Source: a virus
Direction: 5' to 3' (one strand)
DNA: 64,000 nt
Virus record (IMG/VR): IMGVR_UViG_3300032307_000723
Location: 32,001 to 96,000 of that record
Under the pieces are notes generated by a model that saw only the letters and a program-made list of their open reading frames with translations, did no database searches and had not been told where the DNA came from. This document shows positions 1,814-63,817 of the stretch, piece after piece. Within the stretch, counting starts at the first letter, position 1. Each line of letters begins with the position of its first letter. A program made the translations under genes and the position numbers.

Positions 1814-1815
1814 AT

Positions 1816-7649: not shown

Positions 7650-7945
7650 AACAAAAAATTGAAAATGGTGAGAAATTAGTAGTTGATTTCTGGGCCCCGT
7701 GGTGTGGACCATGTAAGATTATGAAACCTATCTTTGAGAAAGTGTCTCAAGAGTATAGAGATGATAACTCAGATGTTCAACTATACACATTAAATGTTGA
7801 AGAGAATAAAGAATTTGCTGCTGAGTTAGGGATTCGTGCTATTCCAACAGTTAAAACATTTGTGGGTGGGGAACAAAAATTCTCAAGTCCGGGTGTGTTA
7901 AGAGAGGATAGAATAAAAGAGTTGGCGACAGAATTATTAAATTAA
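7625..7945 (+). CDS. trxA: Thioredoxin
   Basis: VVDFWAPWCGPCK, IRAIPT cis-Pro motif. Confidence 0.92.
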   Translation: MEITTEELKQKIENGEKLVVDFWAPWCGPCKIMKPIFEKVSQEYRDDNSDVQLYTLNVEENKEFAAELGIRAIPTVKTFVGGEQKFSSPGVLREDRIKELATELLN

Positions 7946-7946
7946 T

Positions 7947-8246
7947 ATGAAAGATTTAAATGTTATAGTTTACACAATGAAGGGATGTCCATTCTGTATG
8001 GACTTTAAAGAATTACTTGTTAAAGAGGGTATTGAGTTCTTCGATAGAGATATTGATGATTACAAAGATGAGTATGAAGTTTATACTCAGATAACTGAAA
8101 ATGATATGATACCATCATTGTTAATTATTGAAGGGGATGATGCCAAATACGAGTCATTCTTATATGCCCCTGAAAGAAACTATAACGAATTAACTGAGGC
8201 GGTTGATATCATTAACCAACACAGAAAAAAAGTTGGTATTATCTAA
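7947..8246 (+). CDS. Glutaredoxin-like protein
   Basis: VIVYTMKGCPFC. Confidence 0.82.
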   Translation: MKDLNVIVYTMKGCPFCMDFKELLVKEGIEFFDRDIDDYKDEYEVYTQITENDMIPSLLIIEGDDAKYESFLYAPERNYNELTEAVDIINQHRKKVGII

Positions 8247-8998
8247 ACGATTACCAAATTTTTATTTATTTTTTTAATAAAATCATATTCTTCAAGTGGA
8301 TTGAGTAGTTCAAAACTCCAATCCACTTTTTTTAATTCTTTTTCTAACCAAGCCATATCAAAATTAAAAACATCTAAAATCGCTGAGGTTAATGTTTTGT
8401 CTATGAATGTTGAGTTAGATTGTCTTACTGAAAATATTGGTTCATCATTTTCAGTTTTATTTTTTGACATATTAAAAATAAGGGTGTTTACAGGATAGTT
8501 TGTAGGAATACTATAAAAGATATGTTTACCATAATAATAGTGTAACCTGCCTTGTCCTAATGAATAACCATAAGGAAATTCGGAAACAGATACCATATCT
8601 TCATCAGTTATTTCAGTAATCACGTAGTTATAGTCATACGATGATTTTTTATTTTCGTATGATTCAATTTGTTTGTGGTTGTATGAACAATTAGTACTAT
8701 TATGATAAACAAATTCAAAATCAGTTGGTTTATTCATTTTAACTTCATATTCGATTAAGTCTATAGTGTGAGATAATTTGATATCACCTATATTATCCTC
8801 ATATTTTTTAAGAAATTCGTTTAGTATTTCAGACAAATCTAATACTTGATTATAACTTGTTTTTCCTTTTATAATAAAAAAGTTTTTGCAATCAACAACT
8901 TTAATTGTTGACTCTTCATTGTGTGGTATTTTGGATAATATAAAATCCGCAAATAAATTAGTGATTAATATTCTACTCTCAGTATTTTTTAAAACCAT
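8243..8998 (-). CDS. Hypothetical protein (weak resemblance to S-adenosylmethionine synthetase N-terminal domain)
   Basis: 251 aa ORF; NLFADFIL..VVDC..IIKGKT resembles MAT N-terminus but catalytic motifs not evident. Confidence 0.55.
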   Translation of the reverse strand: MVLKNTESRILITNLFADFILSKIPHNEESTIKVVDCKNFFIIKGKTSYNQVLDLSEILNEFLKKYEDNIGDIKLSHTIDLIEYEVKMNKPTDFEFVYHNSTNCSYNHKQIESYENKKSSYDYNYVITEITDEDMVSVSEFPYGYSLGQGRLHYYYGKHIFYSIPTNYPVNTLIFNMSKNKTENDEPIFSVRQSNSTFIDKTLTSAILDVFNFDMAWLEKELKKVDWSFELLNPLEEYDFIKKINKNLVIV

Positions 8999-9123
8999 TG
9001 TAAATTATGATAAGTGTTTAATGTTTTGGAAATTATAGTAAAATTAAAAAATAAAACGAATAGTTATTAAATTGAAATAACCACATTCCTTCGTATTTAT
9101 AAGTTAAGTGAAACAAAGTTTTA

Positions 9124-11430
9124 ATGGCTAAAAATATATTAATAGTACCGAGTAATACAATTGCCCCTCAACCGGACAATATTCCTTATATTGATTTTGA
9201 GAACACTGGTTTAATCAAATTGAATGTTCGAGGTAATGGTGATATTGTATTTAGTAGCGCAACAGAAGATGAAGTACTTTTTATTAATGATAAGCAAGTA
9301 AAAACTGGAAATAATCTTAATGTAAAAGATTATTTTGCTGTTAACGGTACTCAAGTTATAAATGGTACAGGGAATTGGATTGGTCCGACAACTAATATTG
9401 CGGGTGCTCAAGGTCCTACGGGTGCGAAAGGGACTACAGGTGATGGAGGTGCAACGGGAAACACCGGTGCTCCGGGTGCTAATAGTGCGGTTTCAGGTGC
9501 TCCGGGTCCAACAGGCCCTACCGGTTCTCAAGGTCCAATAGGAAATAATGGAATTTCGGGTTCCACAGGTTCTATCGGTTCAACAGGACCAACAGGACCC
9601 AAAGGTTCTCAAGGAGCTACGGGTAATATAGGTTCACAAGGTCCAAAGGGGCCTCAAGGTTCTCAAGGACCAAAAGGGGCGACGGGACCAACCGGTAGTG
9701 CAGGGGCGACTGGTGATGCAGGACCTACAGGACCAAAAGGTTCTGTTGGAACAACAGGTGATGGAGGTGCTTCTACAGGATTTCCGGGATTTCCCGGACC
9801 ACAAGGTTCCCAAGGTTCTCAAGGAGTGCAAGGTTCTCAAGGGGCAACAGGAAATACAGGTGCTCAAGGACCTACAGGTGCTCAAGGTGCGACAGGTAAT
9901 ACAGGTGCCCAAGGAATTATTGGACCACAGGGTGCTCAAGGACTACAAGGTGCTCAAGGTGCGACAGGTAATACAGGTGCTCTTGGACCACAAGGAAACA
10001 CTGGTGCGACAGGATTTATAGGACCCACAGGTAATACAGGTGCTCAAGGACCTACGGGTGGTACAGGTGCTGCCGGCCCACAAGGAGCGACAGGAAATAC
10101 AGGAGCGGTAGGTCCAACAGGTAATACAGGATTTACAGGACCTACGGGTAATCCGGGGGCGACGGGACATACAGGTGCCCAAGGTCCACAAGGTCTACAA
10201 GGTGCTCAAGGGACTACAGGTCCTGTGGGTACTCAAGGAAGTAAAGGTCCACAAGGACCACAAGGAACTCAAGGTTCACAAGGTGCAACAGGATTTGTTG
10301 GACCTACCGGACCTACCGGACCCCAAGGATTACAAGGTTCTCAGGGAGCAACAGGAGAGAAAGGGCCAACTGGTGCCCAAGGTCCAAAAGGATTTACAGG
10401 GCCAACAGGACCCACCGGTAATACCGGAGCCCAAGGGCCTACAGGTCCTCAAGGTGCCCAAGGTCCTACAGGTGCAACAGGACCTGCCGGAGCTCAAGGG
10501 TCTCAAGGGGCGGTAGGAAATACGGGTGCTCAAGGAACTAAAGGTCCTCAAGGTCCTCAAGGTGCTCAAGGGGGTGCAGGTCCTCAAGGTGCACAAGGAG
10601 GTCAAGGTTCTCAAGGTTCTCAAGGTGGTCAAGGTTCTCAAGGTGCTCAAGGTGGTCAAGGTTCTCAAGGGGCTCCAAGACTTGGACCCCAAGGAAATCA
10701 AGGAGCTCCAGGTCCAGCAGGTGCTACAGGTGCTCAAGGTCCTCTAGGGGCTCAAGGAGCGACACAACCTACAGGCCCTCAAGGTGCCCAAGGTGCTCAA
10801 GGGTCTCAAGGGGCTTCAGGTACTGCGGCGGCTACTTGTACAACGGCTACATTAAATTATTGGAATGATTGTAGTGAACCGTGTGCCGGTTTTAAAGGGG
10901 GTACTATCACTTATTATCAACAAACAGGTTCAGGTGACCCTTATCCAACTTATAAATTTAGAACCCTTTCAAACTGTCAGAATAGTACGTGTGATTGGAA
11001 TACATATATACCAGTATCAGGGGCTAGAAACTTTTTTTGTACAATTTTAGACCCTGATTGTGGGTTTTTTGTTAACCAATATGATTGTTTTGCCTATTCG
11101 GATGTTAAACTTAAAGATGGTATAGAAACACTTGAAGGTGCGTTAGAAAACATTATGAAAATTAATGCGGTTGAATATGATTGGAATGAAAAATTAGGTC
11201 CTGACAGATATCAATTTTATTTAAATCAAGATAAATTACATACAATCGGTTTGATTGCTCAAAATGTTAGATTATATTATCCTGAAGCCGTAAGAATGAA
11301 TGATGATGGGTATTACTCTGTCGACTATCAAAAATTAAATTCAGTCTTAATTGAGGGTATCAAAGATTTACAATATGAGATAGATGAAATGGATAAAGAA
11401 CTAAACAAAATTGAATTAATACTTAGTTAA
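9124..11430 (+). CDS. Collagen-like fibre protein 1 with Cys-rich domain and S74-type chaperone
   Basis: Long Gly-X-Y tract, ~90 aa Cys-rich segment, then SDVKLKDGI...INAVEYDW...IGLIAQ...YSVDY. Confidence 0.88.
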
Positions 11431-13496
11431 TGGCGAATATTATTATATACCCACAAGGTAATGTTGGAAATACCGACCCTAACATAATTTTTGATGATGG
11501 GTCATCTAAGTTGCAATTTAATGTTAAGAATGGTTTCTTATCTCTATCGTCATCAACAATTAGTGATGGTGTTAATATCGGTCCTCAAAATGTTGTGGTT
11601 TCAGGTACTTCAATTACAGGACCAAGTGCTTCATTAGTTGTAGGTGGGGTTCAAATGATTAATAGTTCAGCCGTATGGGTTGGACCTCCTGAACCATTAA
11701 TAGGTTTCCAAGGTGCTCAAGGTGCTCAGGGAGCTAAAGGTAATACAGGTGCTCAAGGTGCTCAAGGTGCTCAAGGTCCCGTAGGGGCTCAAGGTTTTCA
11801 AGGTTTTACAGGACCTACAGGGTTTGTCGGACCACAAGGACCTCAAGGAGCGCAAGGAGCTCAAGGGTTTCAAGGTTCCACCGGACCAACAGGTGATACC
11901 GGAGTTCAAGGTGCTCAGGGTTCTGCGGGATTTACAGGGCCAACAGGAATTCCGGGAGAGGTTGGACCAACAGGTGATGCTGGTCTTACAGGTGCCCAAG
12001 GTTCTCAAGGTTCTCAAGGACCTACAGGTAATACAGGTGCTCAAGGGGCTAAAGGTCCACAGGGTGCTCAAGGACCTCAAGGAGCACAGGGGCCAAAAGG
12101 ATTTGTTGGACCTACAGGACCTACAGGACCACAAGGTAGTCAAGGTGCACAAGGTGTGAATGCCGGTGCCACAGGTCCACAAGGGTCTCAAGGTCCACAA
12201 GGGTCTCAAGGACCTACAAGTGGTGTTCAAGGTTCCCAAGGAGGTCAAGGTGCTCAAGGTTCCCAAGGTGCTCAAGGTGCTCAAGGTGCTGTTCAAGGTG
12301 CCCAAGGTTCTCAAGGTGCCCAAGGTTCCCAAGGTGCTCAAGGAGCTAATAGTAGTGTCCAAGGTGCTCAAGGTTCCCAAGGTGCTCAAGGTTCTCAAGG
12401 GGGTCAAGGTGCACAAGGTGCGGTTCAAGGTGCTCAAGGTGCTCAAGGTGTTCAAGGTGCTCAAGGTTCCCAAGGTGCTCAAGGTGCAAATGCAGGTGCT
12501 ACAGGACCTCAAGGTGCCCAAGGAGGACCAGGTGCTCCGGGTGCTCCCGGTACAAATTCCGTAGTTTCAGGTGCTCCGGGTCCAACAGGTCCTACCGGTG
12601 CTCAAGGAGCTCAGGGTGCAACACAAGGTGCACCTGGATTTACAGGACCTACAGGTAGCCAAGGTTCTCAAGGGGCGGGTAGTATTATTATGGGGGCAAC
12701 CGGACCACAAGGTTCTCAAGGGGCAACAGGTAATACAGGTGCTCAAGGTGCAAACGCTGGTGCACCGGGAGTTCCAGGTCCAACCGGAGCACAAGGTGCC
12801 CAAGGACCCGCAACCGCTCCCGGACCACAAGGTTTTCAAGGAAATCAAGGTGCCCAAGGAAACGTAGGAGTCGGTGGTGCTCCGGGTCCATCAGGTACCG
12901 TAGGACCACAAGGTGCTCAAGGGCCTAAAGGACCACAAGGTGCTCAAGGTCCTAAAGGGCCACAAGGTGCTCAAGGTCCTAAAGGACCACAAGGTGCTCA
13001 AAGTGCTCCGGGAGCTTCGGGGGCACAAGGAGCAACAGGTCCTCAAGGAGTGCAAGGTTCTCAAGGGCCACAAGGTTCCCAAGGTGCTCAAGGAGAACTT
13101 AGACAAGGTTCTCAAGGTTCACAAGGAGGTCAAGGGGCTCAAGGTGCTCCATCCGATAAAAGATTAAAAGATAATATAACACCAATGGTAAATGTTTTAG
13201 AGAAAACAACCCAAATTAAAGGTGTTATATTTGAATGGGATAGAGAACATAAAAAAATTAAAGATAATAAATCAATTGTATTCCAAGAGGCTTTCTCAGG
13301 TGATTCAATTGGCTTTATTGCTCAAGATTTAGAAAAAGTGGTACCTGAAATGGTATTTACGGATGATGAAGGTTGGAAAAGTGTTAGTTATGGTCAAATG
13401 GTTAGTTTAGGTATTGGAGGGATTCAAGAACAAAAAAGAAGAGTTGACTCAATATATGAAAGAATAAATAAATTAAAACAAATTACAGGTGTCTGA
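11430..13496 (+). CDS. Collagen-like fibre protein 2 with S74-type chaperone
   Basis: Gly-X-Y tract runs directly into [10 protein letters not shown]...IKGVIFEW...GFIAQDLE. Confidence 0.88.
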
Positions 13497-15504
13497 GAAT
13501 ATTATAATAACCCCGGGTAGTGGTACAATTGATTTTAATAGTTCACTTGGAATAGATACTATTTTTATTATAGAATCTGGTTCGTTAAAATTCAAACGAA
13601 GTACTACCACAATTTTCACTATTGATAACACTTATCCTAACTTTAGAGTGAGTACTAATGATGGATTATATGTTATTAACACTTTTATTAATAATTATGG
13701 TTCTTTAATTAATTCTACAGGATGGTTAGGAAATAGACAGCCAACAGGTGCTCAAGGTTCACAAGGTGCGGTCGGTTCACAAGGTGCTCAAGGTTCACAA
13801 GGTGCCGGTGGGGCTCAAGGTAATATTGGTCCACAAGGACCACAAGGACCACAGGGGTCACAAGGTGCAACAGGTCCACAAGGTTCTCAAGGACCTAAAG
13901 GTTCTCAAGGAGCGCAAGGAGTTCAAGGTTCTCAAGGTGCTCAAGGAGACCAAGGACCACAAGGACCACAAGGGCCACAAGGATTTCAAGGTTCTCAAGG
14001 TGCAAAAGGTGCTCAAGGTCCACAAGGGTCTCAAGGTTCGACAGGACCTACCGGAGGTCAAGGACCACAAGGTTCTCAAGGTGCCCAAGGAGGACAAGGT
14101 GCTCAAGGATTAACACCTGGTTCCACGGGTCCACAGGGTCCTCAGGGGGATACAGGTGCTACGGGTCCAAAAGGTGATACCGGGCCAATAGGAGGACAAG
14201 GTTCTCAGGGTGCAACAGGTGCAACAGGTGCAACAGGCCCAGCAGGAGCGACAGGTGCTCAAGGGACAACAGGTCCTACAGGCCCAAAAGGTAATACAGG
14301 TCCAACAGGTCCAACGGGTGCTCAAGGTACTCAGGGTGCAACAGGACCTACCGGAGGTACAGGGCCTCAAGGTTCTCAAGGTGCTGCGGGAGCTCAAGGT
14401 CCGAAAGGTCCAAATGGTCCAACAGGTGCCCAAGGACCTACCGGAGGTCAAGGTTCTCAAGGTTCTAAAGGACCAACCGGACCAACCGGACCTATCGGAC
14501 CAACAGGAGGACAAGGTTCTCAAGGTTTTACAGGATTTGATGGGAATGGAGGTTCACAAGGTGCTCAAGGAGCTGTCGGTGCACAAGGATTCCAAGGTTT
14601 TACAGGTCCTCCGGGGTTCGTTGGGCCAACAGGAGGACAAGGTGCTCAAGGTTCTCAAGGGCCAACAGGTCCAAAAGGAGACCAAGGACCAACAGGTCCA
14701 CAAGGTTCTCAAGGTGCAACAGGACCACAAGGTTCTCAAGGGGCACAAGGTTCTCAAGGAGGACAGGGGTCACAAGGAGCAGCAGGAACGGTTCAAGGTG
14801 CTCAAGGTCTTCAAGGTCCTAAAGGACCAAGTGGTCCTGACGGGGCTGGAGGTTCACAAGGTGCTCAAGGAGATGTCGGTGCACAAGGATTCCAAGGGCC
14901 AACAGGTTTTCCTTCTGTGTCTCCAGGGTCCCCAGGTGCTGCGGGAACTGTACAAGGGGCTCAAGGTGCTGCGGGAACTGTTCAAGGGTCTCAAGGTAAT
15001 CCCGGAGGGGTTCAAGGTGCTCAAGGTGCTGGACCACAAGGTGCTCAAGGTTCTCAAGGTGCGGGTCCAAAAGGAGCTCAAGGAGCCTCAGGGGCACAAG
15101 GTTCTCAAGGAGCTAAAGGTCCATTAGGACCAACAGGTGCTCAAGGTGCTACAGGAGCACAAGGTGCTACTCCATCTGATAGTAGAATGAAAAAAAATAT
15201 TAGACCAATTGAAGATTCATTAGAAAAAGTTTTGAAAATGAGAGGGGTTTCATTTATTTGGAATAAAAATGAAATAACACCAAATTACGGGAAAGACATT
15301 GGATTTATAGCACAAGAAGTTGCCCACGTATTACCTGAATTAGTTTTTAAAAGTAGTAAAGAAAATTCTCACTTTCAGGTTAAATATAATGATGTAATCG
15401 CCCTTTGTTTGGAGGCGATTAAAGAACAATCAAGGTTGATTGATTTAAAAGAAGAAAGATTAGAAAGGTTAGAAAATAAAGCAAAAGAAAAGGGACTTGT
15501 TTAA
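13489..15504 (+). CDS. Collagen-like fibre protein 3 with S74-type chaperone
   Basis: GTG start; Gly-X-Y tract runs directly into [10 protein letters not shown]...MRGVSFIW...GFIAQEV. Confidence 0.88.
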
Positions 15505-27759: not shown

Positions 27760-27834
27760 GACTACGATAGCTCAGCGGGTAGAGCAATCATTGGGAACAA
27801 TGGTGTGCCGGTGGTTCGATTCCATCTCTAGTCA
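27760..27834 (+). ncRNA. tRNA-like RNA with GNRA tetraloop in place of anticodon loop
   Basis: GACTA(C)GA/TCTAGTC acceptor with bulge, TA-GCTC-AGCGGGTA-GAGC D arm, ATCATTG-GGAA-CAATGGT arm, GGTGG-TTCGATT-CCATC T arm. Confidence 0.78.
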
Positions 27835-27846
27835 CAAATAGATTAC

Positions 27847-28029: not shown

Positions 28030-28910
28030 TTAGGGAAACCTAATACGTTCTTAGAAATTTTAGATTATCCATATAGTACTTCGGTATTATAAAAACGATA
28101 ATGGGTGGTATATCATCCTTAAATAAACCGGGAAACCGGGATAAAGTGAATCTGTTGTGTTGACAGGTTTGCGGTCTCAGAAATGGGACTCGAGTATACA
28201 AGTCGGATATCACCTGACCTTCAGTATTGAGGGCAACGCTTTAGAGAAAGTGGTTGGGTGACCGGGCGATGTGGGTCGTCAGGTTGAGGAGGGAACTCCA
28301 ATAAGAATAACCGATAGGAACCAAACAAGAAATTAGGTCATCCAACTTAGTAATTGTGGGTTCCAATATCAGAGAGGACTTAAAACCGAAAGGTATGATA
28401 GAGAACGAGTGGTGTCGCTACTATCCTTACAAAACATCTACCAAGGTGTCAGTTTGAAGTAATCTTAAAATATGAGAGTGGGGACACTCTACCGAGTAGA
28501 TTAGTATTTTGTTGTTCAAAAGATAACGAAGCTTACGACAGACCTCTACTTGGACACATCCACGACACATTTAACTTATAGGATATTTTAAGTAAAACTA
28601 AAAGATACATAAGCAAAAGTGTCTGTCAGGTATCATCGACAAGGTGACTACATAGTAACGAGCCGTTCGTTGCACAGGATGACCGCAAGTCTGAATGTAT
28701 TCTTACGAAAAACCTCTAAGGAGTCGAATCCCGAGTCAGTCCGCAAGATTGAAGAGAGTTGAATAATAAGAGAGTAGATGATATCTCAAGGAGTAATTGG
28801 TCTAACCAATTGTCACTGAGAATTACCATTCAAAAGATGGTGGAAAAGAAGGGAAACTATAATCCTTCCGAAGATTCTTAATAACACGAGTATTCTCATC
28901 GTATTAGCCA
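28030..28910 (+). ncRNA. GOLLD-like large structured RNA (~0.88 kb)
   Basis: No ORF, raised GC, many tetraloop hairpins (TATAGTAC-TTCG-GTATTATA, CCGG-GAAA-CCGG, GTCTCA-GAAA-TGGGAC, GGAG-GGAA-CTCC, ACC-GAAA-GGT, GAGTG-GGGA-CACTC, two GCAA loops); 3' region GAGTAG..TCTCAAGGAGT..GTCACTGAG..TCAAAAG..GAAGGG..AATCCTTC recalls GOLLD; adjacent to tRNA-like genes; own promoter and terminator. Confidence 0.7.
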
Positions 28911-48354: not shown

Positions 48355-48939
48355 ATGAAAGAATTGATTAGAAAAGTATTAATGGAAGAGGTTAGTCGAC
48401 GTTTCACTTCAGGAACTTCAGAAAAACGGAATTTTATTATTAAACGATTGGAAGAATTATTATCTGAAGCAACAAGAGTTATTCCACCACTTGAAGAGAA
48501 TTATGGGATACATAATGAGGAATGGTGTAAAAATGGTAAGGTTGTAATGGAGGCTCGTTATCATGTGGATGAGGATACTGATGAATTTTTCTCAGGTGAT
48601 TTGTTTATCGACCAAGATGTGATTGAGTTTTTATCCAAAATGTTGCAGGTTAGAAAACCCTTTATACTTAATGTTGTTACTGAATGGTATGATGAAAATT
48701 ACGCTAGTAAGTTTGGACCTGAAGTTAATCATCCGGAGTTTGAGATTTTTGAAACATTTGAAACAGATGCTAAACGTAAATGTTATCAGATGATTAATAT
48801 GGATGGCATTAGTAGAGACGAAATGGTTGATTATTTAGATAAGGAAACTGCTTATAGAAGAAAAGAATTAGAAGAATTACCTGATAATGAACTAAAAAGT
48901 AGATATAGAAGTGTTTATAACTCACGATTAAATAGATAA
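48355..48939 (+). CDS. LMEE-leader hypothetical protein
   Basis: MKELIRKVLMEE leader; TATTTAT 48344-48350. Confidence 0.75.
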   Translation: MKELIRKVLMEEVSRRFTSGTSEKRNFIIKRLEELLSEATRVIPPLEENYGIHNEEWCKNGKVVMEARYHVDEDTDEFFSGDLFIDQDVIEFLSKMLQVRKPFILNVVTEWYDENYASKFGPEVNHPEFEIFETFETDAKRKCYQMINMDGISRDEMVDYLDKETAYRRKELEELPDNELKSRYRSVYNSRLNR

Positions 48940-49548: not shown

Positions 49549-49611
49549 ACGACAAAGGTATGGAAATGTTTTATCTTATACAAAAAAAAACGAAGATAAA
49601 TTATCTTCGTT

Positions 49612-49902
49612 TTATATAATTTGATGTTTTTGCCAAAAGTCTTTAATATGTTCGTAAAAGTTATTACGAATGTATTGTTTTATTTGATTTCTAAATATGA
49701 TATAGTTATCACCATCAATATTAGATTCGTTAGCCATTTCTACTGCGACAGCATCCGAGATATGTAAGATTAGATGGTCTAAAGGTACAAAATATAAATC
49801 ATTTTGAAGTTTCGCCATCATAAGTTGATTGTCGACTCTTTTTTTCATATCTGACTCTCGTCTGAGTAATCTATATTGGTTTTCTGTTATAATGTATTTC
49901 AT
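49612..49902 (-). CDS. MKYIITE-family protein
   Basis: MKYIITENQYRLL. Confidence 0.8.
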   Translation of the reverse strand: MKYIITENQYRLLRRESDMKKRVDNQLMMAKLQNDLYFVPLDHLILHISDAVAVEMANESNIDGDNYIIFRNQIKQYIRNNFYEHIKDFWQKHQII

Positions 49903-49903
49903 A

Positions 49904-50275
49904 TTACCATTGAGGGTTTGTATTTAGATTAACTACTTCATATTTTATGTCAATCGGTAGTCCGGTTGATTTTCTAATGTTATATTGTAATTCATATATG
50001 AAGTCAGAGTAATCTTTATATCTCATAAAATTATACATGATGTTAATTTTAAGGATTATCTTTGGGTTATGTTCGGATGGTAATGTTTCGGCATCGGTTA
50101 CGGTTATGTATTCGATACTAAATATTGAATCACACATAATATAATCGTTTTCATCGTCATTACATATATCTTGAATTTCTTTGAACTCCCTATTGATTAG
50201 TTCTTGGAAGACTTGAAGTCGTTTGTTACCTTCAACAATGGTTTTATATTGTGATTCAGTTATAATGTATTTCAT
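49904..50275 (-). CDS. MKYIITE-family protein
   Basis: MKYIITESQYKTI. Confidence 0.8.
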   Translation of the reverse strand: MKYIITESQYKTIVEGNKRLQVFQELINREFKEIQDICNDDENDYIMCDSIFSIEYITVTDAETLPSEHNPKIILKINIMYNFMRYKDYSDFIYELQYNIRKSTGLPIDIKYEVVNLNTNPQW

Positions 50276-50276
50276 A

Positions 50277-50645
50277 TTAAATAAAATCGTCAGTTATTTG
50301 GTTTACAATTAATCCTGTATTCTCTTCAAACCATTTCTTAAACACGGGTTTCCAAATATCACCAAATAATGAGTTTAATTGTTGGCTAACCTTAGGATAA
50401 ATTGATAGTAAAGGGCATTTATAATTATAAAGATGACCATCTTCAGAGCCATTTATAATTTCATTATCTGCGTTACATCCATAATAAATGTAAGAATCAA
50501 CATCATTGATAAAAAAAACAAGGTCACCCCATCTATCAACATCTTCTTGATAACTATCGGTCCACCCATAATCCGGATAAAAGTTCTCATCCAAATAACT
50601 AATGATGGCGCTCTCTAATTTGCTTTCAGTGATAATGTATTTCAT
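50277..50645 (-). CDS. MKYIITE-family protein
   Basis: MKYIITESKLESAI; start moved to 50645. Confidence 0.8.
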   Translation of the reverse strand: MKYIITESKLESAIISYLDENFYPDYGWTDSYQEDVDRWGDLVFFINDVDSYIYYGCNADNEIINGSEDGHLYNYKCPLLSIYPKVSQQLNSLFGDIWKPVFKKWFEENTGLIVNQITDDFI

Positions 50646-50646
50646 C

Positions 50647-51036
50647 TTAGTCGTAGTATTCTTCATCTTCATCTTCATCTTCATCATCGTAGTAATAGGT
50701 ATCAGAATTTGATAACCATTCAAAATCGTGAATGTCTACGTTCAAATCATATTTTTGGTTAAACCAATTTATAATTGAGTTTATTGAGTCTTCACTACTC
50801 AACCCAAATAATTGAGCGATTTTTGTAACCAAATCATCTGAAATAGAAATGGATGGATAAGATTTATCAGGGTATGTTAATGAGTGTTGGATTTCATAAC
50901 GAATAACATCATTACCATGTTTCCCATCAGTAATATTAAATTCTCCGTCACCAATATCTGATGTGTCTAATCCTCGGTTATCCAAATATATGGAAACAAA
51001 GTTATTAATTTTTGATTCTTTTATGATGTATTTCAT
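50647..51036 (-). CDS. MKYIITE-family protein
   Basis: MKYIIKESKINNFV; acidic tail. Confidence 0.8.
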   Translation of the reverse strand: MKYIIKESKINNFVSIYLDNRGLDTSDIGDGEFNITDGKHGNDVIRYEIQHSLTYPDKSYPSISISDDLVTKIAQLFGLSSEDSINSIINWFNQKYDLNVDIHDFEWLSNSDTYYYDDEDEDEDEEYYD

Positions 51037-51058
51037 AATTTATAAATAGTTCATGGAT

Positions 51059-51430
51059 TTAATCTATGAAACCTAATGACCTATCATCAATAGTTTCATG
51101 AGTATAACTTTCATACCAATTAATTAATATGTTATGTGTCTCTCGATGGGTCAATCCAAATAATGACATAGTTTTAAGATAGAATGGTTTATTAACCATT
51201 AAAACTCTTTCAGTCGGACATTCTTCATCTTCTCCTTCATCTCCAATACAATCTTCATTTTCAAATGCTTCAAATATTGCATCTTCGGGAAATTGTGATT
51301 CACTTTTAAAGAATAATCGTGTCATATCGCCCCATTCAGGGTCAGTATAATCGGCAATCTCCCAATCAATATCACTAAGATATTTGAATATGATATTATT
51401 TAATCTACTTTCAGTTATAATGTATTTCAT
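51059..51430 (-). CDS. MKYIITE-family protein
   Basis: MKYIITESRLNNII. Confidence 0.8.
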   Translation of the reverse strand: MKYIITESRLNNIIFKYLSDIDWEIADYTDPEWGDMTRLFFKSESQFPEDAIFEAFENEDCIGDEGEDEECPTERVLMVNKPFYLKTMSLFGLTHRETHNILINWYESYTHETIDDRSLGFID

Positions 51431-51431
51431 A

Positions 51432-51755
51432 TTATTTACATCTTGTATTATAGTATTTCACTAAGTATTTTCCAAATTTATCAACGAAGTAATAGTAGAG
51501 TGTGTCTTTATCTTTTGGTGACATCGTTTTACCATATTCATTTGAGAAATAATCAGAAGAAAGTTCCACCAAATTATCACAAGCGTCAGATACAAAATCA
51601 CCAATACTATTATAATCACATATATTACTCATATCATCAAGAACTCCCCATTCCAAATCATTCATCATGTTTTCAAATGGAAGTCTTCTACGAAATTCAG
51701 ACGATAAATTTTCATTTAGTAATTTGTATTGTGATTCGGTTATAATATATCTCAT
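51432..51755 (-). CDS. MKYIITE-family protein
   Basis: MRYIITESQYKLL. Confidence 0.8.
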   Translation of the reverse strand: MRYIITESQYKLLNENLSSEFRRRLPFENMMNDLEWGVLDDMSNICDYNSIGDFVSDACDNLVELSSDYFSNEYGKTMSPKDKDTLYYYFVDKFGKYLVKYYNTRCK

Positions 51756-52069
51756 TATCTTCCATAAATTTTGTGAACCTCAATCCCATAATTGTCCAAA
51801 AACCACTTCTCCATTATTGTTTTGGACCTAATCCAACCTAAATCAAAAACATTTTCAAGGTGGTTTACAATATGTTCTTTAAGTCCCGGTATTTCAATAT
51901 ACAAATTACCTGAATCTGTGGCATAATAAAAAATTACCTTATTGTTTTCATTAACAAAATGTTTTAGATAAAGTCTTGGTTCATCAATTTCTTTCAATCC
52001 ACCAAAAAAACCTCCAATATATTTGGAAATGAACTTATCTAATTGGTTTTCGGTTATAATATATTTCAT
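51755..52069 (-). CDS. MKYIITE-family protein
   Basis: MKYIITENQLDKFI; start moved to 52069. Confidence 0.8.
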   Translation of the reverse strand: MKYIITENQLDKFISKYIGGFFGGLKEIDEPRLYLKHFVNENNKVIFYYATDSGNLYIEIPGLKEHIVNHLENVFDLGWIRSKTIMEKWFLDNYGIEVHKIYGR

Positions 52070-52070
52070 C

Positions 52071-52442
52071 TTAGCTAACTGTTTTAACCGGTAAATCAAA
52101 ATTTTTCATAAACCAATTTTTAAATGGTTCGTGCCACATATCACCAAAATAACCGTTTAATTTTCTCTCATATTCATACTGAACACCAACCATTGGACAG
52201 ATAGTTCTAGCAAAACTTCCTGGGTTAAAGTAATCACATTCGTGCCAATAAAAACATCCTTCATCTTCCCCCTCGTAATCACCTATGTAAAACACAACCC
52301 GATTAACATCATCCCATTCTTCACCTGTCTCTAAATCATAATCTAAAGGGTGTGTCCAATTAATATCATCGATGTTGAAAAGTTCATCTAAGTAATTGGT
52401 TATTGTTTCGTCCAATTTACTTTCGGTTATAATGTATTTCAT
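52071..52442 (-). CDS. MKYIITE-family protein
   Basis: MKYIITESKLDETI. Confidence 0.8.
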   Translation of the reverse strand: MKYIITESKLDETITNYLDELFNIDDINWTHPLDYDLETGEEWDDVNRVVFYIGDYEGEDEGCFYWHECDYFNPGSFARTICPMVGVQYEYERKLNGYFGDMWHEPFKNWFMKNFDLPVKTVS

Positions 52443-52513
52443 AATTTATAAATAGTTGACGAAATAAAAAAGGGGTTGGGGATTTAACGCCAGCCACCAC
52501 ACAACAGATTATG

Positions 52514-55068: not shown

Positions 55069-56025
55069 ATGAATTTACAAGAGAACATACAGAGAATAAA
55101 ACAGGTGATGGGACTTCTTACAGAAGAAGAAAATCAACCTGCAACAAAAGGAGTTAATCACGGAGTTGTAATTAAGCAGCCATATCAACAAGGTCAAGAA
55201 GGAGAACAATTAAATAGTTTTATAATCGGGGTTACTCATTTTGATGAAAAAAACCCTGTATACTTAGAACTTGATGATATTGACCCTTCAATTATTAATG
55301 ATATAAAACAAGTTGCAACAAACTGTGGGTATTATTATGAGGGTGTGGGTGGAGACGACCTAAAGAACATCGAAAGATTCTTCAAAGAAGAATTAGGGTT
55401 AAATGTTACCGAAAAGATGAGAAAAGGAAGTTACGAACCAAAGATAGATAATGAGCAACCCGACAAAAAGTATTTCATGTATACTTTTTTTTCTAATGGG
55501 AATGCTGTGGATGAGAAAACTAAAGCACAATTAGACGGAATCAACCAAGATAAAATTTTATTAGACCAACTTTCCATATTAAAAAATAGCGGTCAAAAAA
55601 TAAATTCAATTTATGACTTAATTAAGTTTGGTGATGGGTCAAAGTTATTTTGGGATGGTAGTTTATCTTTTAATGATGAGGATAAAGACTGGTTTATTAA
55701 ACAAATACAAGGAACTCCTAACACACAAAATGTAATGGAGTTACTAAAAAGTGCACCAACACCTGAAAATATTAGAAAATTTATTCAGAGTGGGTTTGAT
55801 GTTATGTGGGGGAATTTTGATTCAAAAACGGATAATTTTGGGTACGAACAAGATATAAATAAAACTAAGAATTTATTGACCAAGATGGCAGAAATTGCCA
55901 CACAAAAAAGAAGAGAATACATTAAAAACAATCTTGTTTGTGGGATTTATTTTATAGGTGAAGGACACATAAAATCTTGGCAAGAACAATTTGTGGGTAC
56001 ACAAGTATTTAAAAAAACAAAATAA
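55069..56025 (+). CDS. MNLQENI-leader protein
   Basis: MNLQENIQRIKQVMGLLTEEE then unrelated globular region (IIGVTH..YYYEG). Confidence 0.78.
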   Translation: MNLQENIQRIKQVMGLLTEEENQPATKGVNHGVVIKQPYQQGQEGEQLNSFIIGVTHFDEKNPVYLELDDIDPSIINDIKQVATNCGYYYEGVGGDDLKNIERFFKEELGLNVTEKMRKGSYEPKIDNEQPDKKYFMYTFFSNGNAVDEKTKAQLDGINQDKILLDQLSILKNSGQKINSIYDLIKFGDGSKLFWDGSLSFNDEDKDWFIKQIQGTPNTQNVMELLKSAPTPENIRKFIQSGFDVMWGNFDSKTDNFGYEQDINKTKNLLTKMAEIATQKRREYIKNNLVCGIYFIGEGHIKSWQEQFVGTQVFKKTK

Positions 56026-56684
56026 TGAACTTAAACGAGAATATACAGAGAATCAAAGAAATGATGGGACTTGTTACCGAAGAAGAACAAAAGTCTTATG
56101 AAAGTAAACCTATTGTATTAATAGGTCCACAAGGAACGGGAAAATCAACCACAGCAGAGGCACTTGCTAAAAAACTTGGTATACCATTAATCACAACGGA
56201 TATGTTAATGATTGATGAAAAATACGAGGAAATGTGTAAAAATGAACCGGAAGTTGAGGTTGAGATTACACGAGTTAAAGGTGGGGGAATAAATTATTCA
56301 TCAAACAAAGAATACGAGTTTTGTGTAATGAATAAGATATTTGATAATTATGATAATCAAAAAATAGTCCTTGATGTGGGAGGTTCACATGCAAAGTGGG
56401 ATGACAAACATTCCGAAAGAATGCAAGAATTATTTAATTCAACACCAAATATTTTTATATTCAATGTTAGTGATGATGAAGATGAAACTTACGAATTCTT
56501 GAAAAAAAGAAGAGAAGGTAGAGGAGAACCAATATCACCTGAAAATGAAGTTAAGTTCAGAAATATTATAAGTGATTTAAATAATTTTTATAGAGGTACA
56601 CAAAAAATATCAATTATTGACAAAGATAAGAAATCAAAAACAACCGATGAGTTGGTTGATGAAATAATTACAAAATTAACATAG
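56025..56684 (+). CDS. MNLQENI-leader protein with P-loop NMP/shikimate-kinase-like domain
   Basis: MNLNENIQRIKEMMGLVTEEE; IVLIGPQGTGKST, LAKKLG.P.ITTD. Confidence 0.8.
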   Translation: MNLNENIQRIKEMMGLVTEEEQKSYESKPIVLIGPQGTGKSTTAEALAKKLGIPLITTDMLMIDEKYEEMCKNEPEVEVEITRVKGGGINYSSNKEYEFCVMNKIFDNYDNQKIVLDVGGSHAKWDDKHSERMQELFNSTPNIFIFNVSDDEDETYEFLKKRREGRGEPISPENEVKFRNIISDLNNFYRGTQKISIIDKDKKSKTTDELVDEIITKLT

Positions 56685-57103
56685 TGAAATTATACGAAGA
56701 CATACATAAGATACAATCAATGATGGGGGTTATAACTGAAGACAATAAGAATAATGTTATACGAAAAATGGTTGATTCTCTTGGATTAAAAACTACCATC
56801 CAAATGGTGGGGGATTATTATGCAATTGAACCATATTTAACGGATGTTGATAAAGTTAACTACATTAAAGATAGAGTTTCAGAATTAGGTAGAGGTGGTA
56901 TTAGTTTCCATGATATGGATGAAGACTCAATTCTTGTTTATAAAAATGGTAATGAAGTAAAACAAATTGAATTCTTAGGTAAAGATAGAGCATATATTAA
57001 CTCTTACTATCGTAACGCACTTGTGGGTGATGAAAGAGTTCCATATGAAGATTTACCGGGACAAATAATTGATGAGTTAACTGAGATATTAATCAATAAG
57101 TAA
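56684..57103 (+). CDS. MNLQENI-leader protein, paralog group A
   Basis: GTG start; ITEDNK..IRKMVDSLG..MVGDY. Confidence 0.75.
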   Translation: MKLYEDIHKIQSMMGVITEDNKNNVIRKMVDSLGLKTTIQMVGDYYAIEPYLTDVDKVNYIKDRVSELGRGGISFHDMDEDSILVYKNGNEVKQIEFLGKDRAYINSYYRNALVGDERVPYEDLPGQIIDELTEILINK

Positions 57104-57106
57104 GAG

Positions 57107-57469
57107 ATGAATCTACAGGAGAACATAGAAAGAATTAGAGAAATGATGGGAATGGATAATCCTCGTCATACTTTCAATATACAGAAACTTGTTGACGATA
57201 ATATTATTTTTGTTACAATGCCAGGTGATGGTCAGGGTGGTATTGCCGAACCAAATTGGGAAGGTGATTGTAGTGTACTTACATTAGACAACTTAACTGG
57301 CGAAGAAATTGAATTAAATCCGTGGAGATTGGAAGCAATCAAACAACCTTTACCCGATTGTATTCCATATGTACAAGATAGACAAAATGATTGGAGTGAT
57401 GAGAAATATTATCAAGTAATCAACTCTATAGAAAAAAATGGAGGGGATGTCAATAATTACATAATATGA
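57107..57469 (+). CDS. MNLQENI-leader protein
   Basis: MNLQENIERIREMMG. Confidence 0.75.
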   Translation: MNLQENIERIREMMGMDNPRHTFNIQKLVDDNIIFVTMPGDGQGGIAEPNWEGDCSVLTLDNLTGEEIELNPWRLEAIKQPLPDCIPYVQDRQNDWSDEKYYQVINSIEKNGGDVNNYII

Positions 57470-57903
57470 ATTTACAAGAGAACATAGAAAGAATACACGA
57501 GATAATGGGCGGGGTTATAACTGAAGACAAAATGGATAAGGTTATAAAGAACATGATTGATAGTGTAGGGATAGAAAGTACATTTAAAATGGTGGGTGAC
57601 TACGATGTGGTGGAGAAATATTTTACAGATGAAGATAAGATTAATTATATTAAAGACCAATTTCATAAAATAAATGATGGTAATTTTTTTAGTCTTGAAC
57701 AAATATGGCAAAAACCAATTCAACTTGAAATACAAGAAGACGGGGTAAAGAGAGTTCAAATAGAGGGATTAAGTGAAAACCATGTGTCCGTTGTCAAATA
57801 TAAGTTTAATGGTTCACCTATGAAGTATTATTCAAAATATGAAGTATTATCTTCGGAGACAATAGATAAATTATTTAGAATGATGTTAGGTCAATACATT
57901 TAG
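57466..57903 (+). CDS. MNLQENI-leader protein, paralog group A
   Basis: MNLQENIERIHEIMG; ITEDK..IKNMIDSVG..MVGDY. Confidence 0.78.
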   Translation: MNLQENIERIHEIMGGVITEDKMDKVIKNMIDSVGIESTFKMVGDYDVVEKYFTDEDKINYIKDQFHKINDGNFFSLEQIWQKPIQLEIQEDGVKRVQIEGLSENHVSVVKYKFNGSPMKYYSKYEVLSSETIDKLFRMMLGQYI

Positions 57904-57905
57904 AT

Positions 57906-58208
57906 ATGAACTTAAAACAGGCCATAAGAAGAATATTAAGGGAAGAAGTTAACACCACAAATTATATCAGAAGAAGATATAATTGTATGGATGAATATAT
58001 AACAAAATTAGAAAATGGGGAAGAAAGTCTTCCAATAAGAAGAGGACAATTAGATTGGACTACTTACCAAATAATGATAACCGCTTTTATAAGAAGTAAT
58101 TGTCAAGACGATAATGGGTATTATGACCCAAATTTACATTCAAATATTATGGATATATTTGGTGATAGACTATATCAATGGTATTATAAAAATAATATTA
58201 AGTTATGA
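57906..58208 (+). CDS. MNLKQ..ILREE-leader protein
   Basis: MNLKQAIRRILREE. Confidence 0.75.
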   Translation: MNLKQAIRRILREEVNTTNYIRRRYNCMDEYITKLENGEESLPIRRGQLDWTTYQIMITAFIRSNCQDDNGYYDPNLHSNIMDIFGDRLYQWYYKNNIKL

Positions 58209-58618
58209 ACTTAAAACAAACCATAAGAAGAATATTAAGGGAAGAGTTATATTCTCCTGCAAGTGATGAATACACACCGGGGAAATTCATTGTTCACAAA
58301 TCAAGTCCTGTATGGAGGGAGAACATAGAACTTACCGGACTACAAGTATCGGTGGGGGATTGTTATCAACAGCACGTAGGTGGAGATGAAGAATGTAAAG
58401 AATCCATATTCGCCACAGATTCATTAGATGAAAGAGATATGTTTGATTCTACTTATGATGATGACATTTGGGTAATAGATACTGAATGTGCGGGAGTTAC
58501 ATGGTACAAAGATAAACATTTTGATGGGGGTGATTACAAACATCATATAGTTACCTTCGAGAATATATCACCTGAGTGTATTAAACTAATGCATAAAGGA
58601 ACGGGGAAAAGTTATTAA
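58205..58618 (+). CDS. MNLKQ..ILREE-leader protein with possible ADP-ribosyltransferase-like fold
   Basis: VHKS..RENIELTGL, SIFAT, IWVIDT, ISPECIKL. Confidence 0.6.
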   Translation: MNLKQTIRRILREELYSPASDEYTPGKFIVHKSSPVWRENIELTGLQVSVGDCYQQHVGGDEECKESIFATDSLDERDMFDSTYDDDIWVIDTECAGVTWYKDKHFDGGDYKHHIVTFENISPECIKLMHKGTGKSY

Positions 58619-58619
58619 T

Positions 58620-59054
58620 ATGAGATTACAAGAGAATATACAGAGAATTAAACAGATAATGATTAAAGAAGATAAGGTACCATTAATTAAAAAAATGATT
58701 GATGATATTGGTCTTAAGAACACATTTAAGATGGTGGGGGATTACGACAAACTTGACCCCTACTTAACAGATTCTGATAAGATTAACTTTATTGAGAACA
58801 GTGTTTACAGATTATCAGAGGAAATGGAAACTGTTCTCGTCGGTTTTGCCCTTCAAATTATTGGAGAAAACCCGATTCATTATGGTGAACAAGATGGGGA
58901 ATTACATCTAATAGAATCTTTGTTTCCCAAATATGTGGAAGTTGATTATTATAGTGACAATATGGACACTTATTTAGGTGACTATAATGTTAGGTATGGT
59001 AGTTTACCCACACAGGTATTAGATAAAATATTTAGAATGTTATTAGATAAGTAA
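58620..59054 (+). CDS. MNLQENI-leader protein, paralog group A
   Basis: MRLQENIQRIKQIM; IKKMIDDIG..MVGDY. Confidence 0.78.
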   Translation: MRLQENIQRIKQIMIKEDKVPLIKKMIDDIGLKNTFKMVGDYDKLDPYLTDSDKINFIENSVYRLSEEMETVLVGFALQIIGENPIHYGEQDGELHLIESLFPKYVEVDYYSDNMDTYLGDYNVRYGSLPTQVLDKIFRMLLDK

Positions 59055-59055
59055 T

Positions 59056-59511
59056 ATGGATTTACAAGAGAATATAAGTAGAATACAATCAATGATGGGT
59101 CTTATAACTGAAGACAAAGATTCATTGACTAAAAAAATGATTGATGAACTTGGGGTAATGGCAACCATTAACTTAATGGGGGGTTTTGATTATTCTATGG
59201 AAGATTATATATCCAAGGAAAATAAAATTAAATTCATTAAAGAGGTTGTAGAAAAACTTTGTGAAAAGTACGACGATGTAGAGGTCGCTCAGTATAATCT
59301 TAATGGTAAACAAGTACAATATGATGAAGAAGAAGGTGAGAAACAAATGATAGAATATTATAGACCGGAATTTGTTATCGTAGAAAGATATAAATATGGT
59401 GAAGAAGATGTATACGATGACTACTATCTCGGGTCATTTGAAGTTCCATATGAAGAATTAAGTCATAGTTTAATAAATGAAATTTTCCATTTAATGTTAG
59501 AAGAAATATAA
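59056..59511 (+). CDS. MNLQENI-leader protein, paralog group A
   Basis: MDLQENISRIQSMMG; ITEDK..KKMIDELG. Confidence 0.78.
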   Translation: MDLQENISRIQSMMGLITEDKDSLTKKMIDELGVMATINLMGGFDYSMEDYISKENKIKFIKEVVEKLCEKYDDVEVAQYNLNGKQVQYDEEEGEKQMIEYYRPEFVIVERYKYGEEDVYDDYYLGSFEVPYEELSHSLINEIFHLMLEEI

Positions 59512-59552: not shown

Positions 59553-59989
59553 GGGGGTCGGGGGATAACGCCTCGGACCATATGAAAGATTATCTTGTTA
59601 AAGAGTACATCTTTTCCACTTCCTCAAAATAGGCATAATGAAGAGGGGAAATTCTTCTTAAAGTTAAATTGTAATGCTCCTTAAACCAATCATACAGAAT
59701 CCATTGTTTGGTGTGAGATTCTAACCCAAAAAAAGAATCCAAGAATTCCCAAAGATATTCACTTACACCAATCTTTTCATATTCGGGGTTGTATTCAAAA
59801 ATAACCTTACCATTTTTCATAAAGAATATCAAATCATTATACTCTTTAGTTCTAAATTCTTCTAAATCACTATACTTAGAGTTAAGGTATTTGATTACCA
59901 TTTTCTCCATTTGACTTTCTGTAATAATGTATTTCATATTAAATAAATATAAGGGGTCGGGGATTAACGCATCGGACCATATGAAAGAT
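59553..59989. repeat. ~38-bp direct repeats flanking one MKYIITE gene
   Basis: GGGGTCGGGG..TAACGC.TCGGACCATATGAAAGAT at 59553-59590 and 59953-59989; degenerate copy at 52472-52511. Confidence 0.8.
59590..59937 (-). CDS. MKYIITE-family protein
   Basis: MKYIITESQMEKMV; start moved to 59937. Confidence 0.8.
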   Translation of the reverse strand: MKYIITESQMEKMVIKYLNSKYSDLEEFRTKEYNDLIFFMKNGKVIFEYNPEYEKIGVSEYLWEFLDSFFGLESHTKQWILYDWFKEHYNLTLRRISPLHYAYFEEVEKMYSLTR

Positions 59990-62088: not shown

Positions 62089-62379
62089 ATGGAATATAGT
62101 ATAACTGAAAATAGATTACGAAAACTTTTCGTAAATTATATGAATTCACAATATGATTTAAGGTATGATAAATCTACCCGGGAGTTTGTGGGTAAGGACG
62201 GGGAGATATTCGGATATCTCTTATTCAATACACTGGAATATAAATCTAAACATTTTTACTATGGGGATTATAAAACAGAGTACTTATTAAACGGAATGTT
62301 TGGGGAACTCACCAATGAGTTATTACTTCATTATTTTAGAGAAAGATTTCCGGATGTAACTATTGACGGAATAGAATAG
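62089..62379 (+). CDS. MKYIITE-family-like protein
   Basis: MEYSITENRLRKLF; shares LNGMFG...YF...F.DV.I tail pattern. Confidence 0.72.
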   Translation: MEYSITENRLRKLFVNYMNSQYDLRYDKSTREFVGKDGEIFGYLLFNTLEYKSKHFYYGDYKTEYLLNGMFGELTNELLLHYFRERFPDVTIDGIE

Positions 62380-62698: not shown

Positions 62699-63106
62699 AT
62701 GGAAGAGAAATTAGAATTACTTATGGATAGTGAGTATAAGGGTGAGTTAATCGAAATGATTAATAATTTGTATAATGAGAAATATCCTCAACGAGTACAG
62801 ACCAAGAGATATGGTTTTAATGTTGGGGGGACTTTATTTGTTAACCCCACAACAAATGAGAATTACTTAAATGTGATTCGTCATTTTGAGGGTGTTGTTG
62901 GTTTTGGAGTATTCTCTAAGGTATTGAAGAATTATGTAAGGGATAGTTATGATTCATTCCCGGATTCTTATAAGGGGGCCAATCAGGTTGTTAAGATTAG
63001 TAACTTTTATCTTACCACAAAAACAACTACGGATATGAAGATTAGTCATATAAAATCTTTGGGTGAGTATTTGGATATTCCGGTTGATGTTGTTCCTATG
63101 TCATAG
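62699..63106 (+). CDS. Hypothetical protein
   Basis: 135 aa ORF. Confidence 0.7.
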   Translation: MEEKLELLMDSEYKGELIEMINNLYNEKYPQRVQTKRYGFNVGGTLFVNPTTNENYLNVIRHFEGVVGFGVFSKVLKNYVRDSYDSFPDSYKGANQVVKISNFYLTTKTTTDMKISHIKSLGEYLDIPVDVVPMS

Positions 63107-63122
63107 GCGGGGTTATTCATAT

Positions 63123-63817
63123 ACCGCGTCGTCCGGTCTCACTTCGTTCGAGGGAATCCCAGCCCTTTTTTTTAATTTATTTTTTTTTATTATTGTAAAA
63201 AAAAAATTATGTCAGAGAAAGTAATAACTAAACAGTCGGAATATTATTTGGAGTTTTTAAAGTCTAACCCTATTAAAGGATATGAATACAAATATTTTAG
63301 TGAGGAACATGATGATGACGGTAAGTCAAAAATTGTTTTAACATTAAATGTTGATTGTGAAACTTATGTATTTGGGGAAAATAATAGGGAAGAGATTTTA
63401 GAAGAAATGGAAAAATTACCATATGATGTTTTTGGTTATGATTCTCAATTTATTTCTTTGAAGATTGTTAATAAAGATAAATTTTTTGATAACCATATAA
63501 TTCCATTAAAAAAGTATTTGAAGGAATCGTTAATTGGTGGGGAAATAAAAACAATTAATTTTTATCGTAGAAAGGGTAGTGAGATTTATCCTCCCGAGGT
63601 TTCTATTTCTATTAAACCTGATATGCTAAGTACTGAATGGACGAATACTTCCATTAAATTAAAAACATTATTAAATTCTTATTGTAATAAAAATCATTTT
63701 AACAATTTAGAATTTATTACTCCTATGAGTTCTTATGAAAATTATTTGTACGGGGGGTAATTCGTACACCGCGTCGTCCGGACTCACTTCGTTCGAGGGA
63801 ATCCCAGCCCTTTTTTT
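63123..63817. repeat. 50-bp direct repeats flanking one gene
   Basis: ACCGCGTCGTCCGG(T/A)CTCACTTCGTTCGAGGGAATCCCAGCCCTTTTTTT at 63123-63172 and 63768-63817, one mismatch. Confidence 0.9.
63209..63760 (+). CDS. Hypothetical protein
   Basis: 183 aa ORF. Confidence 0.7.
   Translation: MSEKVITKQSEYYLEFLKSNPIKGYEYKYFSEEHDDDGKSKIVLTLNVDCETYVFGENNREEILEEMEKLPYDVFGYDSQFISLKIVNKDKFFDNHIIPLKKYLKESLIGGEIKTINFYRRKGSEIYPPEVSISIKPDMLSTEWTNTSIKLKTLLNSYCNKNHFNNLEFITPMSSYENYLYGG

Follow-up and report, generated by a model that had tools for sequence, protein, structure and literature searches.

Why should small phage genes whose products differ in body begin with almost the same seven codons? The question is raised by eight genes, designated g1 to g8, that lie head to tail on the minus strand, from position 52442 down to position 49612, of the stretch of DNA analyzed here (hereafter the window), which is 64,000 nucleotides long and represents bases 32001-96000 of a 117,613-bp IMG/VR record. 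The common start of these genes, or leader, is selected as a peptide; it is conserved at N-termini only, is portable, is unstructured in models and is interchangeable. We hold, with somewhat better than even confidence, that it belongs to a greatly expanded capsid-targeting and clip-off tag system of the kind found in phage T4, in which the leader codons would also serve as recombination seams.

Direct reading of all eight open reading frames (ORFs) and their starts bore out the original prediction of eight tandem genes of 96-129 aa with an MKYIITE-type start. Thus, every gene of the array begins M-[KR]-Y-I-I-[TK]-E, and stop and start codons abut, the intergenic spacing from g1 to g8 being 1, -1, 1, 22, 1, 1 and 1 nt. 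The 20-nt DNA repeat that had also been claimed at the gene starts is present as well: with up to three mismatches to the leader consensus allowed, 8 matches were found in the window as opposed to 0.05 expected, comprising seven array copies and a solitary copy at 59937, the copy of g6 exceeding the mismatch limit. The features of the array, in which LFG-WF denotes the family with a C-terminal L..FG....WF pattern, are as follows.

52447-52454, minus strand: putative late-type promoter motif TATTTATA, 4 nt before the ATG of g1 (leaderless spacing)
52071-52442, minus strand: g1, 123 aa; leader and LFG-WF family body; net charge -17
51755-52069, minus strand: g2, 104 aa; leader and LFG-WF family body
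51432-51755, minus strand: g3, 107 aa; leader MRYIITE and an unrelated body without a match to the family profile
51059-51430, minus strand: g4, 123 aa; leader and LFG-WF family body; net charge -18
51041-51048, minus strand: second putative promoter motif TATTTATA, 4 nt before the ATG of g5
50647-51036, minus strand: g5, 129 aa; leader MKYIIKE and LFG-WF body with an acidic Asp/Glu tail; net charge -22
50277-50645, minus strand: g6, 122 aa; leader and LFG-WF body; nearest paralogue of g1 (40% identity)
49904-50275, minus strand: g7, 123 aa; leader and an unrelated body
49612-49902, minus strand: g8, 96 aa; leader and a three-helix-bundle body
49587-49613, minus strand: intrinsic-terminator-like hairpin after g8, 12 pairs and a T run

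An 18-nt stretch at 51034-51051 that precedes g5 and contains TATTTATA is identical to the stretch at 52440-52457 that precedes g1. Because TATTTATA stands before g1 and g5 and one hairpin follows g8, the array looks like two late-type promoter units with one shared terminator. A GAT/GAA repeat (window 50647-50723) codes for the acidic Asp/Glu tail of g5; read in another frame, it yields a Met-Lys run and gives g6 a spurious upstream extension.

The portability of the leader was evident from its distribution. One DNA pattern recovered 61 stretches in viral contigs and 132 unique MKYIITE-type proteins of 57-292 aa, which formed 45 body clusters. In a search of 1.84 billion public metagenome proteins, the family profile matched at least 905 representatives of clusters formed at 50% identity, all named members among these matches being annotated as hypothetical, and the Protein Atlas returned unnamed viral clusters only. 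None of the papers searched contained the leader strings. Cargoes carried on the MKYIITE-type leader included a thioredoxin, an ADP-ribosyltransferase (ART)-fold domain and a three-helix bundle, and a P-loop kinase was one cargo of a second leader class, that of the neighboring array at 55069-59511. Moreover, the leader of the ART-fold cargo (56% identity) is of the second class in the window but of the MKYIITE type in some other phages. Across 140 sequences with a mean column identity of 17%, Glu7 was invariant and Lys2 and Ile5 were conserved in more than 90%. Substitutions within the leader were conservative (Y to I/F/V/L, T to S/K/N), several base changes being needed to produce them. An in-register [ILV]-x-E was present in 140 of 149 N-terminal leader copies; at internal copies in tandem-domain proteins, the MKY part was lost and helix 1 kept in 7 of 10. 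Residues 1-6 of g1 formed a low-confidence coil, with helix 1 starting from Glu7, in an AlphaFold2 (AF2) model made with 140 family sequences (predicted local distance difference test score [pLDDT] 92.8, predicted template modeling score 0.83), and the leader in the model of a fusion protein was likewise a coil of low pLDDT.

The bodies behind the leader were compared by means of a body-only profile, from which the leader columns had been stripped before the search. This profile matched g1, g2, g4, g5, g6, the genes at 59590 and 62089 and two further copies on the contig (E <= 3e-9), with no match to g3, g7 or g8. Since it matched those five array genes, the C-terminal L..FG....WF pattern noted in the original prediction is real for five of the eight; the pattern also stood for 59590 and 62089, was weak for 48355 and failed for g3, g7 and g8. 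The description of the genes as hypervariable was overstated, in that array paralogues are 18-40% identical to one another whereas their orthologues in relatives are 50-90% identical; judged from these sequences, the array genes are old, diverged paralogues. Targeted hypervariability of the diversity-generating type was considered but not adopted, given that orthologues keep a stable identity of 50-90%; a reverse transcriptase was not searched for. Four bodies are strongly acidic (net charge -13 to -22). No Pfam or PHROG model was matched above cut-off by the eight array bodies or the two solitary copies, and no fold match to the g1 model was found in the PDB (best Foldseek E 0.47; best VIA-align Z 3.8 among 48,161 chains), which is no proof of a new fold.

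The body of g8 was a three-helix bundle in the AF2 model of a fusion relative. In relatives, g8-like bodies form the C-terminus of proteins of approximately 290 aa, behind an ART-fold domain; g8 itself is 75% identical to the C-terminus of one such fusion (L029:5774-6652), which retains a decayed internal leader. The N-terminal domain of these fusion relatives is 56% identical to the product of the window gene at 58205-58618. Foldseek matched the ART-fold domain, modeled at a pLDDT of approximately 90, to Tpt1/KptA with probability 1.00 (E 8e-4 to 4e-3), other ART toxins being weaker matches, and as modeled both the 58205-58618 product and the fusion partner of g8 have an ART-like fold. Multi-domain relatives in which a g7-like body comes last are found as well.

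The record is 40% complete according to CheckV, which for 117,613 bp implies a genome of approximately 300 kb, and it is a fragment of an uncultured lake-water jumbo phage of the T4 superfamily with a genome of about that size. Three complete relatives of 294-309 kb carry the leader. In the close relative G001, one flanking gene is 93% identical at the protein level and the flanking DNA is 84% identical. A Bacteroidota host is likely because Shine-Dalgarno sites are not present before genes, because the motif TAnnTTTG, which we take to be the Bacteroidota -7 promoter element, precedes approximately 30 genes and because the nearest cultured relatives of the capsid protein are those of Flavobacterium phages (42.5% identity).

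The leader ends as the original prediction stated, in the motif (I/L)-x-E, with I5-T6-E7 in register and the other leader classes ending likewise. In phage T4, cleavage by gp21 follows L/I-X-E, and for targeting to the capsid the first 10 residues of IPIII are enough (PMC9026906). The internal proteins of T-even phages are described as diverse, with only the targeting sequence conserved, in the part of PMC3012670 that cites Repoila et al. 1994. A prohead protease of the Peptidase_S77 family scored above the curated cut-off in all three complete relatives, G001 included; one protease gene of this lineage lies at L064:1369-2085 on the minus strand. In relatives, a very acidic, scaffold-like gene adjoins the protease gene, a gp23-type capsid gene shares a head module with both, and the capsid protein retains an N-terminal propeptide region, with I-N-E↓A falling within the interval homologous to the T4 cut. 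A tighter core form of the motif had a 20-fold higher density within the first 25 residues of proteins than elsewhere and marked 22-25 of the 175 ORFs on the contig and approximately 30 of 419 in G001.

The same motif recurs inside longer proteins. Multi-domain relatives chain an ART-fold domain, a small beta module and g8-like or g7-like bodies, with L-x-E or I-[LI]-K-E at every domain junction. The beta module, a lysine-rich segment of approximately 50 aa that recurs between domains (L029:5774-6652, L052:6872-7729, L051:3075-3947 and L069:7114-7986) and was modeled with low confidence, always has L-x-E before it and I-[LI]-K-E after it. These junction motifs match expectation for polyproteins cut by the protease and are suggestive of such processing.

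Two classes of promoter-like motif were recognized, the distance to the downstream ATG being in both cases either 13-25 nt or exactly 3-4 nt. The first, TATTTATA, was tenfold enriched upstream of genes, with spacings to the ATG of 3-4 nt or 13-22 nt, and stood before a collagen-like tail-fiber gene, g1, g5 and at least 10 other leader genes. In the three relatives it also preceded the protease gene, the scaffold gene and much of the head module, while TAnnTTTG, the second class, was not found at head-assembly genes. From these associations TATTTATA is inferred to be a late-type promoter and TAnnTTTG an early-type one. By a crude assignment of operons to either motif, the TATTTATA units of the contig contained 24 leader genes and the TAnnTTTG units contained none, compared with 81 and 57 of the other genes (Fisher P 1.3e-5). 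The spacing of 3-4 nt suggests leaderless mRNAs from both promoter types. Example sites in the window are 28978, 49279 and 64952 for TAnnTTTG and 52442, 51036 and 39005 for TATTTATA. The T4 late promoter motif TATAAATA was rejected as a candidate, since it occurred upstream of one gene only and the enriched motif was TATTTATA; a scan for the sigma-70 consensus was uninformative (90 sites as opposed to 95 expected).

The array is not the same from one relative to another in its content, order or location, and the breakpoints fall at leaders. The variable cassette array of the original prediction, for which an array invariant among relatives had been named as the refuting observation, is therefore upheld. 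At the syntenic site, G001 has three leader genes as opposed to the eight in the window, and g7 is the sole array gene with an orthologue there. A 6-kb insert occupies this site in G001 (L068 and L069, G001 303000-309177 joined to 1-12000). The body of g8 is found elsewhere in G001, inverted and fused. Orthologues of g1 (52-90% identity) occur in at least four different genomic contexts in relatives, those of g2 in L080 and L081 are 82-90% identical and those of g3 are 59-64% identical; in both L080 and L081 the gene order is g1-g3-g2. Blocks of nucleotide homology start at an ATG and stop 27-57 nt inside the leader of the next gene, and many leader-only matches of 25-50 nt connect otherwise unrelated sites. 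Within the G001 insert, at joined coordinates 4290-6415, three paralogues of another small-gene family have an N-terminus of their own (MITDKF type).

If the leader is a capsid address, the array would be a set of late-transcribed cassettes, each specifying a small protein with a portable tag of seven residues. The tag would bind the core of the assembling prohead, as the capsid targeting sequence (CTS) of T4 does, and would be removed by the Peptidase_S77 prohead protease by a cut after Glu7 (I-T-E↓S), after which the mature protein would be retained in the head and would enter the host with the DNA. The short repeat at every gene start would consist of the tag codons, in some cases with the adjoining upstream promoter motif, and recombination between these repeats would permute, move, add and delete cassettes so as to leave different sets in related phages. 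The acidic small bodies could be anti-defense factors.

The T4 CTS, which is found on IPI, IPII, IPIII and Alt and is processed by gp21, is the nearest parallel. As in T4, a short N-terminal peptide ending in (I/L)-x-E is carried by otherwise unrelated small proteins, in a lineage with a gp21-type protease, an acidic scaffold and a gp23-type capsid protein, and an ART-fold protein, in T4 Alt, is among the tagged cargoes. The T4 CTS has 10 residues, in contrast with 7 for the leader described here, and here several leader classes coexist; tagged genes number approximately 25 or more per 117 kb, as opposed to a handful in T4. Many bodies here are also strongly acidic, the probable host is a member of the Bacteroidota and the genome is approximately 300 kb. 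To our knowledge, and judged without a tool alignment, the leader does not resemble the T4 CTS. Homology of leader or bodies to the T4 CTS or internal proteins was not found with Pfam, PHROG or tblastn against GenBank phages, and the system described here is therefore at most analogous to that of T4 in function, and not homologous to it. Polymorphic content among relatives is a further likeness to the internal-protein loci of T-even phages (PMC9026906; and, as cited in PMC3012670, Repoila et al. 1994 and Mullaney & Black 1996).

Two other known systems are informative. In phages phiKZ, 201phi2-1 and SPN3US, which also have very large capsids, many head-internal proteins are cut after Glu by a diverged gp21 homologue (PMC9026906, PMC10052503), as is predicted here. 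These phages differ in that cleavage follows S/A/G-x-E and removes long, dissimilar propeptides instead of one short shared tag, and their proteases reach the Pfam S77 model less clearly than do those of the lineage described here. The shuffling seen here resembles that of the promoter/stem-loop (PeSL) cassettes in hyperplastic regions of T4-type phages, where small non-essential ORFs lie between short repeats and genes are reordered, gained and lost between close relatives by recombination at these repeats (PMC2839356, PMC4122927). The repeat described here is, by contrast, mostly coding, the promoter motif is found at two of eight genes and is of late type whereas PeSL promoters are early, and there is one terminator and no stem-loop per cassette. 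With two late-type motifs and one terminator for eight genes, the array was not assigned to the PeSL type.

Several observations weigh against a capsid-targeting role. A prohead protease gene was not found on the 40%-complete fragment. The (I/L)-x-E motif is short and common, with an enrichment of only 1.8-fold for its loosest form; the cleavage motif was retained in only 2 to 4 of seven decayed internal leader copies. In G001 the enrichment of leader genes in TATTTATA units was weaker (P 0.06), and the term late, as applied to this motif, comes from association only. The acidity of four bodies (-13 to -22) makes them a poor match for proteins that lie within packed DNA, and dozens of cargoes per phage would far exceed the handful of T4. 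Searches of GenBank phages by blastn with the array and by tblastn with g1 and the best family representative gave no match, and no family member was found in Flavobacterium phage immuto, the nearest cultured relative by capsid protein. Lastly, codon bias at Tyr3 and Ile5 leaves room for a role at the mRNA level.

A broader form of the capsid-address reading, which we advance tentatively and consider appreciably less probable than the T4-like system as such, is a multi-class address code. According to this proposal, uncultured jumbo phages of the T4 superfamily that infect Bacteroidota would use several interchangeable short leaders, all ending in the motif of the head protease; the motif would also separate domains in polyprotein-like cargoes, dozens of different small effectors, exchanged rapidly, would be loaded per capsid and the leader codons would be genome-wide recombination seams. 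A candidate additional class was observed in G001 at 192136-196899 (L149), where the four genes that closely follow the capsid gene have a common N-terminal motif that ends in L-H-E-S or T-E-E-E. On the evidence of this motif and of the TATTTATA motifs that precede them, the four are candidates for head proteins with a leader class of their own.

The heptapeptide might instead be a recognition tag for a partner other than the prohead core. This could be another virion compartment (tail or baseplate), a hub protein or chaperone of the phage, or an adaptor through which a protease would degrade the tagged protein at a set time (N-degron). Methionine followed by a basic residue and three hydrophobic ones presumably resembles one class of ClpX N-terminal signals. 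A positional, portable and unstructured N-terminal peptide fits this explanation equally well, and acidic bodies suit cytoplasmic effectors at least as well as proteins embedded in DNA. Left unexplained, however, are the [IL]-x-E ending with its invariant Glu in every leader class, the presence of the same motif at domain junctions and the promoter motif that leader genes have in common with head genes, and we regard another partner as unlikely.

It is more improbable still that the conserved start is an mRNA or translation element, that is, an A/U-rich 5' coding segment for leaderless initiation or for termination-reinitiation in a host that lacks Shine-Dalgarno sites, of which the peptide would be a by-product. 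No Shine-Dalgarno site precedes the genes, their stop and start codons abut and g1 and g5 have leaderless spacing, as such an element would have it. Consistent with selection on the nucleotides, TAC is over-used at Tyr3 (58% as opposed to 25% in the background) and ATA at Ile5 (76% as opposed to 32%), and the eight array leaders are 89.6% identical over 21 nt where 83.4 +/- 1.9% is expected from the peptide and codon usage (P ~0.0008). The third base of the Thr6 codon is nevertheless free, tracking background codon usage, the bias at Tyr3 favors C and not U, protein-conservative substitutions that require several base changes are found, and other leader classes have quite different nucleotides with the same [IL]-x-E ending, Glu7 being invariant. 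Because the Thr codon varies freely, the DNA repeat is mainly a by-product of peptide conservation. The recombination handle of the original prediction thus stands in part: breakpoints at leaders and a modest extra similarity of the DNA speak for it, but the repeat itself can mostly be attributed to the peptide. Plain paralogy, by which the common start would be the inherited, fold-bound N-terminus of one expanded family, draws on the five of eight bodies that form one family and on a helix 1 that belongs to that fold right after the leader, but is largely refuted, and hence very improbable, given that the leader occurs on unrelated folds and 45 body clusters, is unstructured in models, is exchanged on the same cargo and decays when internal.

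Other genes of the window that bear on the capsid-address reading are located on both sides of the array.

48355-48939, plus strand: probable distant LFG-WF member with an IRKVLMEE-type leader; body-only profile E 1.8e-4
55069-59511, plus strand: neighboring array; its nine or ten genes have leaders of a second class, which also ends in [IL]-x-E
58205-58618, plus strand: gene for an ART-fold protein (by Foldseek) with the second leader class; 209 homologues
59590-59937, minus strand: solitary family member with an MKYIITE-type leader; matches to the consensus and the body-only profile
62089-62379, plus strand: solitary family member with the variant leader MEYSITE; match to the body-only profile

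The solitary gene at 59590-59937 is flanked by 37-nt direct repeats (59554-59590 and 59953-59989) that are 92% identical and that, as sequences, resemble the footprint of a cassette insertion. Farther from the array, three long genes for collagen-like tail fibers (window 9124-15504, plus strand) form an island of 45% GC in a genome of 30% GC. A full-length GOLLD RNA is present at 28492-28902 on the plus strand (Rfam RF02032, 304.8 bits), and upstream of it, at 27760-27835, lies a tRNA-like gene with the anticodon loop 'ggaa' according to ARAGORN. A GC-rich repeat of 69 nt, 91% identical between its two copies at 63104-63172 and 63749-63817, is located 3' of two consecutive genes and terminates in a terminator-like hairpin with a T run.

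If the leader is indeed a capsid address, a motif of seven residues would reveal from sequence which proteins uncultured giant phages deliver to their hosts, and would thereby provide a large catalogue of candidate first-strike effectors, among them an ART-fold enzyme and a confidently folded domain without a match in the PDB. It would also show that a coding repeat is able to drive the exchange of gene cassettes, and phages of Bacteroidota could be engineered with the tag as a minimal signal for packaging. If the leader is not a capsid address, an N-terminal signal so conserved and so widespread still demands explanation.

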